This document shows, piece after piece, positions 2,929-25,156 of a stretch of 25,397 bases of DNA. The notes under the pieces are model-generated. The model had not been told where the DNA came from. It saw only the letters and a program-made list of their open reading frames with translations, and did no database searches. Source of the DNA: a virus (Duplodnaviria > Caudoviricetes); the IMG/VR virus record IMGVR_UViG_3300037296_000154, positions 1 to 25,397 of that record; one strand, 5' to 3'. The position numbers and the translations under genes were made by a program. Every line of letters begins with the position of its first letter. The first letter of the stretch is position 1.

Positions 2929-4035
2929 CTAGTTATTGCTAAGGTCAAGCATAATGTTGACGGTTATTTCTTTCGGGCTGTTGTACGGGCGAACCACCAT
3001 GTAAATCACTACGCTTTTGTTGGTCGGCCATGTGATTTCAATATCACCATCAATTGGCGGGGTGATATCACCTGGGAACTGCGTGCCTAAAATGGTGTAG
3101 CTTTTGCTCATGGTGCGCAGTGGCTTCATAAAATAAGCTTTGTTTAGCTCAATACTGTTTGGCGTTGAGTTCAGTACGCGATCAGCGATGCGGCGAATGG
3201 CTAGCACACGCACTTCACGGCTGGCTTTGTGCACTACACGTAGGTTTTCAATGTATTGATAGTCACCGCCTGCAGCGTCTAGGGTTGAACCATCGCCCCA
3301 ATACGTGCCCTCAAAATCGGAATACCACTGCGGCACACTAAAACGTGCAACGGCTAAGGTGTTTAATGTGGCCAGTGATAATGGCGCGGCTGCGCTGTCA
3401 ACTGGTGATGCACCTAACCCCATTACGCTTCCGGTAGCCACGCGCATTGGGCTGTCGGCAATACTGACGCTGTGGTTACATAAGCGCCCGGCTAATACGC
3501 CCACATTGTTGCCGTGTAATTGCGGTACTGGGATGGCTAAGTGATTAGCTAACCCGGTTACGAGTGCCACGCTTGCGGCTTCATAGGCTGACCATGTTTG
3601 GGTTGCCGCGTCGATACCTGGCACTGCAACAAGGCCAGATACAAAGCGACCTAGTTTGGCTTGCAAGCTAAACAAGTAATCGTGCTTTTCGCTGATATCG
3701 GTGGCGATGGTGGAAATGTCGCAAAACACCACGGTTTCAAAACTTTGCACTTCATTGCTGCGGTCGATGGCGTCAAATACGTCTTCGCCATCTGCCAGCG
3801 GGTAAACCGCGGCGGTCCAGTTTTGACCCGCGTTTAATTGCGCAGCGATCACTTGAGCGCGCAGGCCACTGTCGGCTAATGCGTCTTCAAGGTCTGTTTG
3901 TGCATTCACGCTAAACAGTTGGCTTTCTTCACCGGCTGCACCTGCGCGGCCAATAAATAGAAAGTGTCGTTCAATCGCAGCAATATCACCTTGCCCTAGA
4001 TTGAGGTTGTTAACTTGTACTTTACCTAGTGCCAT
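2929..4035 (-). CDS. Tail sheath protein (HP1/K139-type, DUF2586-like)
   Basis: 368 aa, VQVNNLNLGQG...ERHFLFIG, GVLAGRL...SIADSPMRVATG, YQYIENLRVVHKA. Confidence 0.88.
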   Translation of the reverse strand: MALGKVQVNNLNLGQGDIAAIERHFLFIGRAGAAGEESQLFSVNAQTDLEDALADSGLRAQVIAAQLNAGQNWTAAVYPLADGEDVFDAIDRSNEVQSFETVVFCDISTIATDISEKHDYLFSLQAKLGRFVSGLVAVPGIDAATQTWSAYEAASVALVTGLANHLAIPVPQLHGNNVGVLAGRLCNHSVSIADSPMRVATGSVMGLGASPVDSAAAPLSLATLNTLAVARFSVPQWYSDFEGTYWGDGSTLDAAGGDYQYIENLRVVHKASREVRVLAIRRIADRVLNSTPNSIELNKAYFMKPLRTMSKSYTILGTQFPGDITPPIDGDIEITWPTNKSVVIYMVVRPYNSPKEITVNIMLDLSNN

Positions 4036-11158: not shown

Positions 11159-12171
11159 CCGCGGCGAACGACGAAGCCGTGAACGACGCGGATCAACCAA
11201 AAATTAATAAACCTGTGGTGTTCAGTTTGCCCGAGCAAGTGATGCCTAATATGTGGCTAACTGATTACGACTCGCTTTATTACAACTCAAGCGACGAATA
11301 TTGGGAACCGCCGATTGATAGACAATTACTGGCTAACCTTACCCGTCGTAATGCCCAGCATGGCGGCATAGTGCAAAGCCGCGCCAATATGGCCGTGTCT
11401 CGTTTTGTGTCGGGTGGTATGAGTGCTCAAGAAATGGGTGCAGCGCTTTTAAACTGTGTACAGTTTGGTGACGTGGCGTTGTTGAAAATTCGTAATGGCT
11501 TTGGTCAGGTTGTGCGGTTATTCCCGCTGCCCAGTTATCGCAGTCGTGTGGGTAAGGATGGCGGCGCGGTGGTGTTAGAACGTGACCAACAATTTAAGCG
11601 TTACAAGGCTAAAGATATTATTTGGGTTCGTCAGTATGACCCTGTGCAACAGGTTTATGGTTGCCCCGATTATTTAGGCGGTTTGCAGGCAGCATTGCTC
11701 AATGAAGATGCCACTTTGTTTAGACGCAAATATTACATCAACGGTGCCCACATGGGTTTCATCATGTATGCCACTGACCCGAACCTAGACCCTGATGTTG
11801 AACAGGATATCAAAGAGAAAATTCAAGATTCAAAAGGCGTGGGTAACTTCAAATCACTGTTTGTGAATATTCCCAACGGTAAAGAAAAAGGCTTGCAGAT
11901 TATCCCCGTGGGTAATTTTGAAAGTAAAGACGAGTTTATGAACGTGAAGAACGTGTCGGCACAAGACGTATTAAATGCTCATCGTTTTCCGCCTGGCTTA
12001 GCCGGCATTATCCCCGCGAACACTGCTGGCCTTGGCGACCCTGCAAAATATGACTTGGTTTATTTTAAAAATGAGACTCGACCGCTGATTAACAATTTTG
12101 TCAATGCGGTTGAACGTGACCCAGAAGTTGGCGGCAAGTTAAAATTGGTTTTTGATATGGAATCAAATTAG
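11140..12171 (+). CDS. Portal protein, PBSX/P2 gpQ family
   Basis: [74 protein letters not shown]. Confidence 0.96.
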
Positions 12172-12879
12172 CTTAGAAATTTTGGCCACTCCATAGTAAT
12201 CAAATAAAAATAGCGGAAAACCGCTCAATACAGCCACATCGCCGGCAACAATATGTTTTTCTTTTTGTTTCATAAATATTTGGGCAGAAGGTAATAAAGT
12301 TGTTGGCATACAATATTCATCATTCACTAAATAATTAGCTTTTTGTAAGTTTGCAGAAATCAAACGTTTCCAACTATCTATTTTTAATGTTGTAAGATTT
12401 AAAAAAACTTTATCACCCTCTCTACTAGTAATACCTTTATATGATTTCCCTAATGATATTTTAGACACTAGATTTTGATAAACACTTAAGTCATCTAAAT
12501 GTCTTAAAGACTCTACCATAGGATAACTTATATAAAGTTTTCCCTTTTCTGTTTCCTCATTAAAAAAATCAAGCATATTCTGTAATTTCACATTACATGC
12601 TGTTGGTACATGCCCGTCATAATCAAAAAACAAATATATTTCAGCAATATCTGAAAAATCGATATGTTTCAGGATTTCCTTATTTTGGGATCTTTCCTTT
12701 AATATATAAAAAAGCTCTAAATCTTCATCTTTCTGCAAGGTATGATATAAGCTATAAATTTCCCCACAGAAAACACCAACGATTACAGTAGCATCGTTGA
12801 AAAAATGTTGTGCCATGCTTCTCTTTATACAAACTTCTGTCTTCTCGCCCTCAAAGACGAACAATATTGTATTAGTCAC
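12163..12879 (-). CDS. TOPRIM-like / RloB-like partner of the ATPase (putative anti-phage effector)
   Basis: GTG start overlapping the ATPase stop; ILFVFEGEKTE (TOPRIM conserved Glu), IYLFFDYDGH (DxD), LYISYPMVE (RloB-like SNPxFE position); AT-rich. Confidence 0.65.
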   Translation of the reverse strand: MTNTILFVFEGEKTEVCIKRSMAQHFFNDATVIVGVFCGEIYSLYHTLQKDEDLELFYILKERSQNKEILKHIDFSDIAEIYLFFDYDGHVPTACNVKLQNMLDFFNEETEKGKLYISYPMVESLRHLDDLSVYQNLVSKISLGKSYKGITSREGDKVFLNLTTLKIDSWKRLISANLQKANYLVNDEYCMPTTLLPSAQIFMKQKEKHIVAGDVAVLSGFPLFLFDYYGVAKISKLI

Positions 12880-13987
12880 CGAAAGAACCTGCTCTGTACA
12901 TTTTTTCAATATTATGAGCTTCTCTCAAATCTTTAGAAGTACTATTTGACAGAGATTCGATACCACTTTCTTTCAATAGAAAATAACAATCAGGTCTTAA
13001 AAGCTCGTTAGTCATAACAGATGTGTTGTGACTAGTGATCACAACTTGCGACTTTATCTCACGTAATCTTTTAATAATAGCTTCTGATAATGAATGGTGA
13101 TAAAAAGCATCAAACTCATCTATAAATAGAAAAGTTACTTTTGATTCACTACCTCTGAGCCTTTGTAACCAGAAATAAAACAATGCTAAAGACTTAGTCC
13201 CTTGAGATGCTATCTCATAAAAAGGGATTAGTTTTGAACCAAATGAAAAAGCTAAACCAGGTTTATCCGTTTCTTCAATTACTTCAAGTTTACATTTTAC
13301 TCCAACTTCATTAAGAAATGATTCGAAATCTTCTACATTTTTTCTTTCAACTATGTCTCCAGTTATAGTAGTTGACCCTTGTTCAAATCCAATATAATTA
13401 TTTTGTTCTAAAGATCTAAAAAAAAGCATTCCATTAACAAATTCAACAAACTTATAAAAACATTTATTCGTATCATTAGGTGTGAGTACTGTATTTTTTT
13501 TAATGTATGAGACTATGGAAATCTGTGAATCACCGATATCCCTAACTAAATTCTCTGCGCCATCAATATTAAAATTTGCTATTGTGTTTTTATTTCTATC
13601 TATTGCAGCAAAGAGCACATCATTAATATAAAGAGATTCCGAAATTAAAGTTTCTTTATCGCTTTTACTATACTCATATTGGACATTTCCGCAGTCAAAT
13701 CGAAAGTTATATTTGAACCTTGCAAATCCAGAGCTATTTTTTGCATTCAAGAAATTTGAATATCCCGATGAACCAGGATGCTTATCCGTCAAATGGCTAA
13801 TCAAATCTAAGAGGGCAAAACCCAAATTAGATTTCCCGCTTCCATTATGTCCATAAATCAAACTTTTATTAACAATATTATTTTTTACACAGTCAGTATT
13901 GAATGCGTAGTTGTTAGTTTTAGTAAAATCAAATACAAACTTTTTTTCAAAGTTTTTAAAGTTTTCGACTTCAAATCTAGCTAACAT
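12872..13987 (-). CDS. ABC-type AAA ATPase (AAA_21 / RloA / AbiLi-like)
   Basis: MLARFEVENFKNF start with GGAG SD; Walker A GHNGSGKS, signature-like ASQGTK, Walker B LFIDEFDAFYH, H-loop ITSHN, LLRPDC. Confidence 0.88.
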   Translation of the reverse strand: MLARFEVENFKNFEKKFVFDFTKTNNYAFNTDCVKNNIVNKSLIYGHNGSGKSNLGFALLDLISHLTDKHPGSSGYSNFLNAKNSSGFARFKYNFRFDCGNVQYEYSKSDKETLISESLYINDVLFAAIDRNKNTIANFNIDGAENLVRDIGDSQISIVSYIKKNTVLTPNDTNKCFYKFVEFVNGMLFFRSLEQNNYIGFEQGSTTITGDIVERKNVEDFESFLNEVGVKCKLEVIEETDKPGLAFSFGSKLIPFYEIASQGTKSLALFYFWLQRLRGSESKVTFLFIDEFDAFYHHSLSEAIIKRLREIKSQVVITSHNTSVMTNELLRPDCYFLLKESGIESLSNSTSKDLREAHNIEKMYRAGSFGD

Positions 13988-14046
13988 TACTGTACTCCAA
14001 GCGATTTTGTACTCTATTAGCTCGGATGATATCATAAAAAAATCAC

Positions 14047-21657: not shown

Positions 21658-22587
21658 ATGTCCGTGGAAAGCGCTGTTGTTATTTGGCAAGGTAAGACTA
21701 AAGACATTGAATTTAGCTATACCGATTTTAAAGGCAATAAATCCCGAAGAAATATAACTGTAAACAAAGTGCTATTTGATGAAGATAGTGAAAACTTTTA
21801 TATCAATGGTATTTGCAAGGAACGCCAAGCAGAAAGAGACTTTAAAGAAAGTAATATTTCTACCATGATCAAAGTTGGCTCTAACAGGTATGACTTTCAA
21901 GAGTGGATGATTACATTAAATGTTGATACTTCTGAATGGTTAGATAAAAGCAATAATATAGCTAACAGCGAACATGTAGATGTTCCCAAAGAAAAAATAA
22001 GCTTTGCGGCTAAAATTGAAGATCATAACCGTAAACAGCAAATCAAACTTGATGAACTAAAAGCAAGTAAACCAAATACGAATATGTTTTTGAAAGTGCT
22101 ATTTTGGGTTGGTGTATTTATTGCCCCTTATATATTCGCGTGGTTTACATTGCGTAAAGGTAATTCAACTAAATCAAAAGTTATTGCGTTCGGATGGTTA
22201 GCTTTCTTTGCCATTGCTTATCTCAGTTCCCCTGAAAAAAATCCGGATGATGTAACGGCTAAAATAGGTGATAAAAAAGAGATAGAATGCAAGCAAACCC
22301 TGACGTGCTTGGCAGAAAAGCACATTATTTATGCTGGGGCTATTTGCCAATCACCTATTGAACGTTTATCTAAATATACTTACGAATGGACTGACGGTTT
22401 TGCTACGCCTCGCTTTAGTCATTACCGCTGGGTGAATCAGTCAAACGGCATTATCACTTATATCGGTGACCAAATAAAAATGCAAAATGGTTTTGGTGCG
22501 TGGTCCCATTACACCTATGAATGTGATTTCGATACGATAAATAAGACTGTTGTTGATGTTCGTGCAACGCAAGGCAGGATTCAATAA
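21658..22587 (+). CDS. WYL-like domain + 2 TM helices + Cys-containing C-terminal domain
   Basis: IEFSYTDFKGNKSRRNITV...YINGICKERQAERDFKESNI (WYL pattern); hydrophobic FLKVLFWVGVFIAPYIFAWFTL and VIAFGWLAFFAIAYL; C-terminal C..C..C..QNGFGAW..YECD; AAGGA SD. Confidence 0.7.
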   Translation: MSVESAVVIWQGKTKDIEFSYTDFKGNKSRRNITVNKVLFDEDSENFYINGICKERQAERDFKESNISTMIKVGSNRYDFQEWMITLNVDTSEWLDKSNNIANSEHVDVPKEKISFAAKIEDHNRKQQIKLDELKASKPNTNMFLKVLFWVGVFIAPYIFAWFTLRKGNSTKSKVIAFGWLAFFAIAYLSSPEKNPDDVTAKIGDKKEIECKQTLTCLAEKHIIYAGAICQSPIERLSKYTYEWTDGFATPRFSHYRWVNQSNGIITYIGDQIKMQNGFGAWSHYTYECDFDTINKTVVDVRATQGRIQ

Positions 22588-22652
22588 TTTAAATGTCAAT
22601 TACAAACACCAAAAACGCATATCCTGTATTTTTATAGTAGAGATGTAACCAA

Positions 22653-23234
22653 TTGAGCATAGAAACCCTATTTTCATCAAAAATCATAGTTCCAATTGTC
22701 GTCGCGTTTATTGGCTTTTTAGTCGCAGTAACGACAGCCGTCATCGCAAAAGAACACAAAATATCTGAATTTAGGCAAAAATGGATTGATGATATAAGGT
22801 CTGATTTAGCTATTGCTCTACAAAGTTCATACGACTGTTTATATGAACTTCATAATCCATCGACCATAGAGAGTGTTGAGAAATATAATGTATCTTATAG
22901 AGAGTTAGAATTTAGGTGTAACTTAATAATAATCAAGCTTAACCGTAAAAAAGACGCTGTATTTATTGAGCTAATTAGAACACTTCTTAAAGAGCTTTTT
23001 GTGGTTTCCCAAGATACTACAGATCTAAATAGGCAAAGCTGCCAACAAACAGCTACACAGTTTCAGAAAATGAGTCATGACCTCTTAAAGAATGAGTGGG
23101 AAAGAGTAAAAAAAGGGGAAAAACATTTTCTGATATTTAGAAGTTTTGGCGAGTTATGCTTATTTGCATTTGTCACAGCTTTCTTGATCATACTTGCAGT
23201 ATCTAAGTTCCCTGAATACTTTCTTATTACATAG
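22653..23234 (+). CDS. Hypothetical membrane protein (N- and C-terminal TM helices)
   Basis: IIVPIVVAFIGFLVAVTTAVI, then KEHKISEFRQKWIDDIR, and LLKNEWERVKKGE before a C-terminal TM; AT-rich. Confidence 0.7.
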   Translation: MSIETLFSSKIIVPIVVAFIGFLVAVTTAVIAKEHKISEFRQKWIDDIRSDLAIALQSSYDCLYELHNPSTIESVEKYNVSYRELEFRCNLIIIKLNRKKDAVFIELIRTLLKELFVVSQDTTDLNRQSCQQTATQFQKMSHDLLKNEWERVKKGEKHFLIFRSFGELCLFAFVTAFLIILAVSKFPEYFLIT

Positions 23235-23260
23235 ACAACTTGATTGTTGGAGTACGAAAA

Positions 23261-23686
23261 TTGCCAATAAGTTATTCACCCAAAGTTGGACAAATCTTGA
23301 TGTGTGATTTCACAACTGGATTTATCGAGCCTGAAATGGTAAAAAAACGTCCCGTCATTATATTAGCAACAAGACCTAACGGTCATAAACTGGTTACCGC
23401 GGTTTGTTTGAGCACTGTCAGACCTGAACCACAGCAACCTCACCACATGATTTTAGATCAAGCTCACCTACCTAAATTAAAGTTTTTCGAATCAGGTAAG
23501 GAAACTTGGGTAAAAGGAGATATGATTTACTCTGTTAGTTTTGACAGGCTTGAGCTTATTTCGATGGGAAGAGCTGGCGGTAAGCGAGTTTATTTTATTA
23601 ACCGCCTTAGCCGAGAAACAATGAGGGAGGTATATAGTTGTGCTCTCAATGGTTTAAACCTCGGAAAATTAAGTCAGCACCTTTAA
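23261..23686 (+). CDS. PemK/MazF-family endoribonuclease toxin-like protein (orphan)
   Basis: PKVGQILMCDFTTGFIEPEMVKKRPVIIL...LVTAVCLST...WVKGDMIYSVSFDRL; TTG 23261 with GGAG SD (track start 23240). Confidence 0.85.
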   Translation: MPISYSPKVGQILMCDFTTGFIEPEMVKKRPVIILATRPNGHKLVTAVCLSTVRPEPQQPHHMILDQAHLPKLKFFESGKETWVKGDMIYSVSFDRLELISMGRAGGKRVYFINRLSRETMREVYSCALNGLNLGKLSQHL

Positions 23687-23747
23687 TATGTTATTGGTAC
23701 ATATACGCACAATACGACACAATGTCGCACCTTATAACTTTTTAATC

Positions 23748-23775
23748 TTGCGTATAGGCAAGATTTTGTTAAGAT
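23748..23775 (+). promoter_or_regulatory. Sigma70-type promoter
   Basis: TTGCGT (23748-23753), 16-nt spacer, extended -10 TG-T-TAAGAT (23770-23775). Confidence 0.65.
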
Positions 23776-23781
23776 GGTCCT

Positions 23782-23915
23782 GTTACAGCTTCACTGGGTT
23801 TATCCAGTACGGAGCACTCGAGACTACTACTAGTGAGTAGCCAGCCCATAATTGGCGATGACAAGCCCTATGGCGCTGCTGATAGCCCTCTTTTTTGGAG
23901 GGCTTTGTCATTTTT
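23782..23915 (+). ncRNA. Candidate structured small RNA (~130 nt) downstream of the PemK/MazF-like gene
   Basis: Between promoter and intrinsic terminator; two hairpins, a possible H-type pseudoknot and a 5'/3' closing stem; no convincing ORF. Confidence 0.55.
23884..23915 (+). terminator. Intrinsic terminator
   Basis: AGCCCTC-TTTTTTG-GAGGGCT followed by TTGTCATTTTT. Confidence 0.7.
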
Positions 23916-23967: not shown

Positions 23968-24990
23968 ATGTCAGTTAGAAATCTAAAAGACGGTAGCGAT
24001 AAACCTTGGAAGTTAGATCTTCGCCTTGGTGGTCGTGATGGCAAACGTATCAGAAAAGTCTTTGCCACAAAGGGCGAGACAATCGCTTATGAAACTTTTG
24101 TATTAAAACAGGTAGACGATAAACCGTGGCTTGGTGAAAAGGAAGATCCCCGCAAACTATCTGAATTGATTAAACGTTGGTATGACTTGCACGGCCAGCA
24201 ACTAGCCCAGCCGCAATCGCGTTTAAGAAAGTTAGAACTGACTTGCTTTGGTATGGGAGACCCAATAGCCAGCAAGATGACAGTCAATGATTTTGCCAGT
24301 TATCGACAAATGCGACTGGATGGTGAGATAGAAGATTTTCAAGGTAAGAAAAACAAAGTAAAGCCAAACACAATCAATCACGAACATGCCTACTTAAATG
24401 CGGTGTTTAGCGAATTAAAACGCCTTGGCGAATGGACTTTACCCAATCCACTGGACGGTTTACCTCAATTCAAAATTGAAGATACCGAACTGGCCTATCT
24501 CTACCCAGAAGAAATCCCCATTGTGTTGGCCGAATGTCGCAATGCAGAATATGAACACCTGGTAACGATTGTCATGGTTTGCTTGGCAACAGGCTGCAGA
24601 TGGTCAGAAGCCGAAAACCTCAAAGGCAGTCAAATAGCACACAACCGGATTACCTTTGTAAAAACTAAAGGGAAGAAAAACCGAACTGTACCCATAGCCC
24701 AAGGGTTAGCCGACTTGTTACCCCGCGTTCGTGGTCCATTATTCAGACCATGCCGAAGATCATTCGAACGAGCAATAAAACGAACCGGCTTAGTTTTCCC
24801 AGACGGACAAATGACCCACATATTGCGTCATACATTCGCCAGTCATTTTATGATGAACGGTGGTAACATTTTAGTGTTAAGACAAATCTTAGGCCATGCT
24901 GACATTAAAGACACCATGCGTTACGCCCACTTTGCACCCGATCACTTAGACGACGCCATAACCAAAAACCCAATAGCCAATCTATTATAA
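23968..24990 (+). CDS. int: Tyrosine recombinase phage integrase (HP1/186-type)
   Basis: Catalytic set: TGCRWSE (R), KTKGKK (K), HILRHTFASHF (HxxR), ILGH, TMRYAH (Y). Confidence 0.96.
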   Translation: MSVRNLKDGSDKPWKLDLRLGGRDGKRIRKVFATKGETIAYETFVLKQVDDKPWLGEKEDPRKLSELIKRWYDLHGQQLAQPQSRLRKLELTCFGMGDPIASKMTVNDFASYRQMRLDGEIEDFQGKKNKVKPNTINHEHAYLNAVFSELKRLGEWTLPNPLDGLPQFKIEDTELAYLYPEEIPIVLAECRNAEYEHLVTIVMVCLATGCRWSEAENLKGSQIAHNRITFVKTKGKKNRTVPIAQGLADLLPRVRGPLFRPCRRSFERAIKRTGLVFPDGQMTHILRHTFASHFMMNGGNILVLRQILGHADIKDTMRYAHFAPDHLDDAITKNPIANLL

Positions 24991-25100
24991 ATGTCCACAA
25001 ATTGCCCACGCAGCGCGCGGAACACCACAAGAACCAGCCAACAATCAACACTTAACCTTTTGTTTTAACTGTAAACCTTTGATTTGCAACCCCCACAATT

Positions 25101-25148
25101 AGAATGTAGGCTTTCTGGACGCGGGTTCAAGTCCCGCCGCCTCCACCA
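25101..25148 (+). other. ssrA: att core: duplicated 3' end of tmRNA (ssrA), prophage right boundary
   Basis: ATGTAG...GGACGCGGGTTCAAGTCCCGCCGCCTCCACCA gives the T-arm and acceptor 3' strand with U for the G3-U70 pair and CCA; the 5' part of the gene is absent upstream. Confidence 0.88.
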
Positions 25149-25156
25149 ATTTATAG

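Follow-up and report, generated by a model that had tools for sequence, protein, structure and literature searches.

Comparative sequence analysis indicates that a structured non-coding RNA next to a YifN-type PemK/MazF-family gene in a P2-type phage is real and belongs to that toxin gene, and that the two genes travel as a unit. We propose, with a probability of roughly 0.7, that the RNA is the antitoxin of the YifN-type toxin and that it would act in a type III-like manner, binding the protein instead of base-pairing with the toxin mRNA. This proposal is drawn from the linkage of RNA and toxin, the freedom of their layout, and the lack of an antisense signal.

The window, the whole 25,397-nt stretch of DNA that was analyzed, is a P2-type phage record in which portal, terminase, gpA, CII, CI, and integrase genes were recognized. 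From cI to int, the order is a 309-aa gene, a 193-aa gene, the PemK gene, and the RNA gene, with the following features:

21658-22587, + strand: 309-aa protein after cI; weak WYL match at the N-terminus, two TM segments; L283 and L285 carry relatives
22653-23234, + strand: 193-aa two-TM protein upstream of the toxin; context only, not the partner
23249-23252, + strand: GGAG ribosome-binding site ahead of the toxin TTG start, from the sequence; homologues align from the same start
23261 (TTG)-23686, + strand: YifN-type PemK/MazF-family protein, 141 aa, predicted endoribonuclease and homodimer
23748-23775, + strand: predicted sigma-70-type promoter of the RNA, TTGCGT-16-TAAGAT with extended TG
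23782-23915, + strand: structured non-coding RNA of about 130 nt, G23782 being its predicted +1; the family start GUU lies 6-7 nt past the -10 box
23788-23815, + strand: P1 hairpin, diverged from the family CCYG-CUC form; predicted fold, with a compensatory change in L282 and L388
23816-23840, + strand: conserved single-stranded linker ending AG(A/U)C, then the P2 hairpin (23824-23840)
23842-23878, + strand: long stem P3 (23842-50 with 23869-78), P4 cap (23854-56/23865-67), and conserved loop GAUGACAA (23857-64)
23884-23904, + strand: intrinsic terminator hairpin, its position conserved in relatives
23905-23911, + strand: 3' tail UUGUCAU, complementary to loop 23858-64 (predicted pseudoknot)
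23968-24990, + strand: P2-type integrase; context only

An earlier note on this DNA had claimed a PemK/MazF gene without a small antitoxin gene beside it, and both statements held. The protein matches Pfam PF02452, and only that family, with 40 bits (curated cut-off, 23.1; E = 5e-10), and no small antitoxin ORF accompanies it in the window; NCBIfam and PADLOC gave no match to the toxin. JGI names its relatives "YifN (PemK superfamily)," its closest named homologue is a Shewanella protein (91% identical), and an ESM Atlas search returned PemK clusters only. The family, E. coli YifN included, comprises 831 clusters at E ≤ 1e-10 when clustered at 50% identity. In a structure model of the toxin (pLDDT 93.9), the best fold match was S. 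aureus MazF (Z 13.6, rmsd 2.5, 113 residues aligned). The type III toxins scored lower, CptN with a Z of 9.2, ToxN with 6.1, and AbiQ with 5.9, and CptN and ToxN ranked below 10 MazF/Kid-type entries; TenpN, which was not among the matches listed, may nonetheless be alike. Residues R30 and S51, invariant in 73 sequences, align to the RP and (S/I)T motifs of S. aureus MazF, positions that we take to be those of the catalytic Arg and Thr/Ser of MazF. Homodimer prediction gave a score of 0.78 (best control, 0.01), with contacts at least 98% alike between runs and a pLDDT of at least 89; 20 of 30 solved dimers attain the mark used for this score, as does 1 of 23 monomers, and the toxin may have passed it through its resemblance to MazF dimers of known structure. 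On these models, the protein is predicted to be a toxic dimeric RNase of the PemK/MazF superfamily, YifN type.

The RNA is predicted to have its own transcription unit. A separate promoter had been claimed about 60 bp past the toxin stop, and one was found there: TTGCGT at 23748-53, a 16-nt spacer, and TG-N-TAAGAT with TAAGAT at 23770-75, 61 bp past the stop. Its score is low (7/12 plus the extended TG), and it was missing from the output of a consensus scan; in relatives, however, the corresponding position carries a promoter. The intrinsic terminator that had been proposed after the RNA was likewise located, at 23884-23904. Covariance model R2, built from viral relatives only, matches the window RNA with 58 bits (E = 3.5e-11). 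The fold of the window RNA beats 200 of 200 shuffles (z = -3.64), and no internal repeats were found in it.

Across the family, the RNA is built of P1, a linker ending AG(A/U)C, P2, one C, a long P3 with P4 and the loop GAnnnCAA, the terminator, and a tail. Bases A40, C43, and G59 are invariant in 50 of 50 sequences, and P2 pairs have both sides changed in up to 31 of the 50. Compensatory changes occur in all nine P3 pairs and all three P4 pairs (alignments A3 and A5). In A3, which was not fitted to a model, 89.1% of cells pair, compared to 74.2% when shuffled and 34-41% when slid; in the held-out, model-fitted A5, 94.3% pair compared to 40-47% when slid, with both-side changes in 31 of 32 pairs. 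Run on a 50-sequence MAFFT alignment, RNAalifold found P2, P4, and a portion of the terminator but neither P1 nor P3, both of which were out of register. The hairpins at 23788-23815 and 23824-23840 agree with those drawn in the earlier note, and in the close relatives L282 and L388 a G-C pair of the first is replaced by A-U, a compensatory change.

The H-type pseudoknot suggested for this RNA fared differently. Its helix S1 (23840-44/23852-56) has a pairing probability of 0 in the nested ensemble, because 23854-56 is occupied by the GGC/GCC stem P4 (probability at least 0.997), and only 5 of 77 relatives could form all five of its pairs. The S2 pairing is real but belongs to a nested stem, and the proposed 5'-3' closing stem is absent among pairs above 0.05. 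In place of that pseudoknot, we predict pairing between the loop and the 3' tail, which covaries at two positions in the sequences compared. It is not universal, since 36 of the 133 distinct RNAs with a terminator lack UUG in the tail. In the other 97, the next two loop-tail positions are Watson-Crick in 87 and 73, compared to shuffled means of 59 and 42 (maxima of 73 and 54 in 5000), counts that are inflated by relatedness and by motif-selected loci; the third position past UUG gave no covariation signal in these 97 RNAs (44 compared to 41 shuffled). A toxin tree with 66 labelled tips shows 11 changes of the loop base, 8 of the tail base, and 13 of the pair, which lends the predicted pairing modest support. 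Seven loci (L023, L067, L069, L098, L152, L155, and L158) have no separate terminator hairpin, the U-tract following P3 directly. In three acidobacterial loci (L072, L074, and L075, about 3415-3480), the minimal RNA is one hairpin plus a terminator; from these forms it is possible that P1 and its linker are the core of the RNA.

The linkage of RNA and toxin was assessed in 80 genome loci and 80 viral loci with toxin homologues, which group into 132 clusters when the toxins are clustered at 90% identity. Of 77 hand-parsed RNAs, 24 were selected on the ground that MAFFT had kept them in register, and model R1 was built from these. R1 matched 75 of the 80 genome loci (23 of them in training) and 67 of the 80 held-out viral loci, while R2 recovered the window and 14 of the 18 loci missed by R1. 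In total, the full RNA adjoins the toxin in 156 of 160 loci; the remaining four are the three acidobacterial loci, whose short form has the first hairpin and terminator only, and L150, where the contig ends inside the toxin. All but two loci have one model match, and the extra matches in those two are weak. The association was also evident when the search began from the RNA. A metagenome motif scan yielded 32 loci, all of them model matches and 31 with a YifN match, several of these loci being identical, one YifN match being a fragment and one lying in two pieces. A loose pattern scan of viral contigs found 120 loci, of which 80 were scanned; these matches were mostly chance, 12 of the 80 being real. 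Nine of the 12 have the toxin (six on already-counted contigs), one lies at a contig edge, and two are without toxin. In 150 further genomes of one order, with 23 RNA candidates scored per genome, neither toxin nor RNA was found, and among the sequencing runs listed in a search for the RNA there was no holder.

Other partners were considered and set aside. Were the RNA a leader of int, it should track with the integrase; among 80 integrase loci, one carries the RNA and none the toxin, and the RNA instead follows the toxin. The 193-aa protein encoded upstream does not behave as an antitoxin in these comparisons: none of the 160 toxin loci carries a homologue, and homologues occur in L284 and L286 where toxin and RNA are absent, so that each gene occurs without the other. 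The largest family of neighboring ORFs (at least 40 aa, within about 600 bp) covers only 7 of the 132 clusters. A peptide antitoxin inside the RNA is not conserved, an ATG being present in the RNA loop in only 65 of 133.

Of the 143 RNAs placed with R1, the window's included, 131 lie downstream of the toxin on the same strand, seven are convergent, and five lie upstream in the promoter-RNA-terminator-toxin order of toxIN. The earlier proposal of a single-copy, separately transcribed RNA partner is strongly supported by comparison, but its reversed layout is not universal, given the upstream and convergent forms. A sigma-70 match scoring at least 8/12 immediately precedes the RNA start in 54 of 77 RNAs (controls, 1.6%), and the same test gave 36 of 56 (control, 1.7%) and 16 of 24 (control, 3.5%) in further RNA sets. 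In half of the clusters (66 of 132), TTGAC falls within the final 30 nt of the toxin gene. A Shine-Dalgarno-like site precedes the toxin in only 26 of 132 clusters, which suggests that the toxin is weakly translated.

No evaluable toxin lacks an RNA. The converse does occur, as the RNA is found without a nearby toxin in L175, L176/L282, and L386, and also in E. coli K-12, where yifN is broken. The RNA alone is tolerated and the toxin is never alone, the usual asymmetry of toxin-antitoxin pairs. L176/L282, a close P2 relative, shares the integrase and keeps the RNA intact, but a different small gene pair lies upstream. In this relative (1-582), the divergent pair found where the PemK gene would be resembles what we take to be a GNAT toxin-antitoxin module. 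The contig begins 468 nt before the RNA, and a toxin may lie farther off. The RNA of L176/L282 is possibly a relic or a decoy, and intact RNAs without a nearby toxin (L176/L282 and L175) could mean that the RNA has a second role.

E. coli YifN belongs to the same protein family as the window toxin (32% identity). Used as a search query, it found no viral relative, and a toxin tree for its ancestry was set aside on account of a long unreliable branch. Among seven fetched plasmid, phage, and chromosomal homologue regions, four carry the long RNA (E ≤ 2e-4); E. coli p5217 has it in convergent order. The other three carry a short RNA, among them the chromosomal yifN region between rep and ppiC, where the RNA lies directly downstream of the gene. 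This form has a TTGACA-17-GATAAT promoter, a terminator, and two small hairpins spaced by 23-28 nt. In L407, the short RNA is in convergent order. L412 and L414 show the two-hairpin repeat clearly; it is weaker in L408, L409, L411, and L413 and not significant in the K-12 short RNA (p = 0.38). L412 (938-1417) is a Glaesserella plasmid in which the YifN-clade gene and its two-repeat RNA lie beside lnu(C). The short element is present in 4016 of 5426 complete E. coli genomes. K-12 yifN (b3777) is a pseudogene.

An E. coli sRNA of 79 nt, ecr3777(d+), has been reported at 3957925-3958004; it was also seen by Conway 2014 and is among five northern-positive sRNAs (Romero 2014, PMC4681348). The available text of that report gives it neither a function nor a toxin link. 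A GlmZ offset of 1977 places ecr3777(d+) on the K-12 promoter-to-terminator unit beside yifN. In the probe table of the PMC4681348 supplement, the probe labelled ecr3777 does not match the locus and the one labelled ecr2775 is the exact complement of the yifN-side RNA, and the two labels therefore appear to be swapped; both RNAs were northern-positive. The long-form model did not match the E. coli short RNA significantly (E = 0.38), and so its expression is evidence by position and family rather than by RNA homology. What connects the short and long RNAs is their position, the protein family beside them, and the likeness of one small hairpin, not demonstrated homology.

In the mechanism that we favor, the RNA would be made constitutively, in excess over a weakly translated toxin, and its unpaired conserved segments (the AG(A/U)C linker and the CAA loop) would act as a pseudo-substrate, sitting in the grooves where the dimer binds RNA, while loop-tail pairing would protect the RNA 3' end. 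Upon a stop in transcription, through loss of the element or phage host shut-off, the RNA would decay and the RNase would be freed, the possible benefit being addiction or abortive infection. An anti-phage role gained no support from the neighbors of the toxin loci, since only 1 of 78 upstream neighbors matched a PADLOC defence entry (78 of 96 listed neighbors were submitted, after duplicates and likely antisense frames were dropped).

The co-occurrence and covariation data would also fit if the RNA were a cofactor, forming a ribonucleoprotein in which it acts as nuclease scaffold, sensor, or activator. Its invariant bases sit in unpaired segments, and it is bigger and more complex than ToxI-type repeats. 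We nevertheless consider this unlikely: no variable segment resembling a guide was observed, only one or two small hairpins are left in the acidobacterial and E. coli-clade RNAs, and the finding of RNA alone, never of toxin alone, fits an inhibitor better. The RNA might instead control the toxin mRNA, by antisense or transcriptional interference where the genes converge and as a 3' UTR or attenuator in the other layouts. The spacing is suggestive, the RNA end lying within about 26 nt of the toxin stop in the seven convergent loci and the terminator 6-14 nt before the toxin start in the five upstream loci. However, the identical fold is kept across all three layouts. Moreover, in 111 downstream-sense loci, the duplex energy with the 5' region was -56.0 for cognate and -54.1 for non-cognate pairs (sd 12), and the longest RNA-toxin complement was 7.8 nt and 7.7 nt, respectively. 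Type I antisense action was rejected on this basis, and mRNA control in general seems distinctly unlikely.

That the protein is a non-toxic RNA-processing or RNA-binding factor serving a functional RNA, or that the RNA is mainly an insulating terminator, strikes us as improbable. RNAs without toxin (L175, L176, and L386) speak for a non-toxic factor, as do long-standing chromosomal sites (between two conserved genes in seven clusters, and rep/ppiC in E. coli) and the frequency of the short RNA among E. coli genomes, with K-12 expressing it next to a pseudogene. Against this, orphan RNAs are few and the active-site positions of the protein are invariant, and an insulating terminator would need neither its own promoter nor three covarying upstream helices. 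Finally, the fold and predicted dimer match type II MazF, as they would if the toxin were an ordinary type II MazF with its protein antitoxin elsewhere or in a small missed ORF. This we regard as highly improbable, as there is no shared neighboring ORF of at least 40 aa, the ATG in the RNA loop is found in fewer than half of the RNAs, and the RNA would be left unexplained.

An RNA antitoxin for the YifN-type toxin, which we continue to prefer, invites comparison with the type III families ToxIN/AbiQ, CptIN, and TenpIN, in which, as described in the sections of Blower 2012 (PMC3401426) at hand, a MazF/Kid-fold toxin likewise lies beside a non-coding RNA with promoter and terminator. The promoter-RNA-terminator-toxin order is shared by five loci here. 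A pseudoknot is predicted as well, its loop-tail pairing covarying at two positions in 97 RNAs and being absent in 36 of 133. In contrast to those families, the window's family has no tandem array: it has one multi-helix RNA, mostly downstream or convergent, with its own promoter. Two-unit repeats are found only in distant YifN-clade (E. coli-clade) loci, and the antitoxin and terminator lie upstream in only 5 of 143 placed RNAs, the window's being downstream. The toxin is also nearer in fold to type II MazF than to ToxN, CptN, or AbiQ, and is a predicted dimer. With type II MazEF/PemIK, it shares the fold, the positions of the active-site Arg and Ser/Thr, and the predicted homodimer; where those systems have a protein antitoxin gene, an RNA gene stands here. 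A precedent outside ToxN for an RNA-held RNase is the AbiF type III system, whose RNase is, in the passages available from PMC13064643, kept inactive by a directly binding non-coding RNA; AbiF differs in its HEPN fold and upstream RNA. E. coli yifN and ecr3777(d+) provide a case in which an RNA directly downstream was detected experimentally (PMC4681348, available text), and differ in the 79-nt form without P3 and P4.

From the comparative data, the module is real and widespread and likely works like a type III system, yet it falls outside ToxIN, CptIN, and TenpIN. The loci described here would escape the search of PMC3401426, whose criteria, in the sections at hand, are an upstream terminator and tandem repeats; earlier type III searches would thus miss such loci, because they required upstream tandem repeats. 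A "pemK" RNA motif of Rfam is named in the available text of PMC11061315. No Rfam 15 family matches the RNA in the window, in 20 of 80 related loci, or in the E. coli locus. We take the "pemK" motif to be associated with PemK-domain genes, an association that it would share, together with its name, with the RNA here. The RNA motif is absent from Rfam; the 79-nt RNA in the corresponding position in E. coli was already known (Romero 2014). A full-text literature search returned no description of the toxin-RNA pair, although supplements of RNA-motif surveys and of bioRxiv papers may list the motif. If the antitoxin reading is true, the RNAs form a large new antitoxin family that controls a type II-like MazF dimer. 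Both E. coli yifN and the 79-nt sRNA, known since 2014, would then acquire a function. It may also explain some "solo" MazF genes, for which small-RNA antitoxins were raised as a possibility (PMC2701414, in the part available). More tentatively, and at somewhat less than even odds, YifN-type proteins may be dimeric MazF toxins of an unrecognized class, kept in check by a structured RNA that is transcribed separately and in any orientation, and may bridge types II and III; the E. coli clade would use two short hairpin repeats, the window clade one multi-helix pseudoknotted RNA, and RNA-only phages a decoy against the toxin.

Close relatives of the window phage bear on how the module arrived. 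In L283, the 309-aa gene directly abuts int, and in L284 and L286 the 193-aa gene does so; toxin and RNA are both absent from all three. L388, in contrast, has the toxin (91% identity), RNA, and int. Because a neighboring gene abuts int in these relatives without either element, toxin and RNA appear to have been inserted into the phage cargo region as a single unit. Positions 22584-22603 match the junction where int begins in L283, and likely are a remnant of the old int start that marks the cargo insertion point. At about 25100-25150 (+ strand), the sequence resembles what we take to be a tmRNA 3' end, followed by a terminator, and is likely the attachment site; ARAGORN found no full tmRNA gene.

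Several further settings were observed. In seven Rhodobacteraceae-type loci (L034, L037, L041, L044, L065, L066, and L071), toxin and RNA occupy a constant chromosomal site between a 372-aa gene and a 365-375-aa gene, which we presume to be dnaN and recF. Vibrio Vinavirales-type phage elements (11 records; L400, 2995-3669) carry the toxin and long RNA after a LexA-like repressor, and in a Saccharibacteria genome (L053, 3611-5423) a group II intron lies directly downstream of the RNA. Elsewhere in the window, between the portal and replication genes (12163-14035, - strand), is a two-gene candidate PDC-M12A/B defence system, an ATPase and its partner, with PADLOC E values of 2.6e-157 and 2.2e-83.
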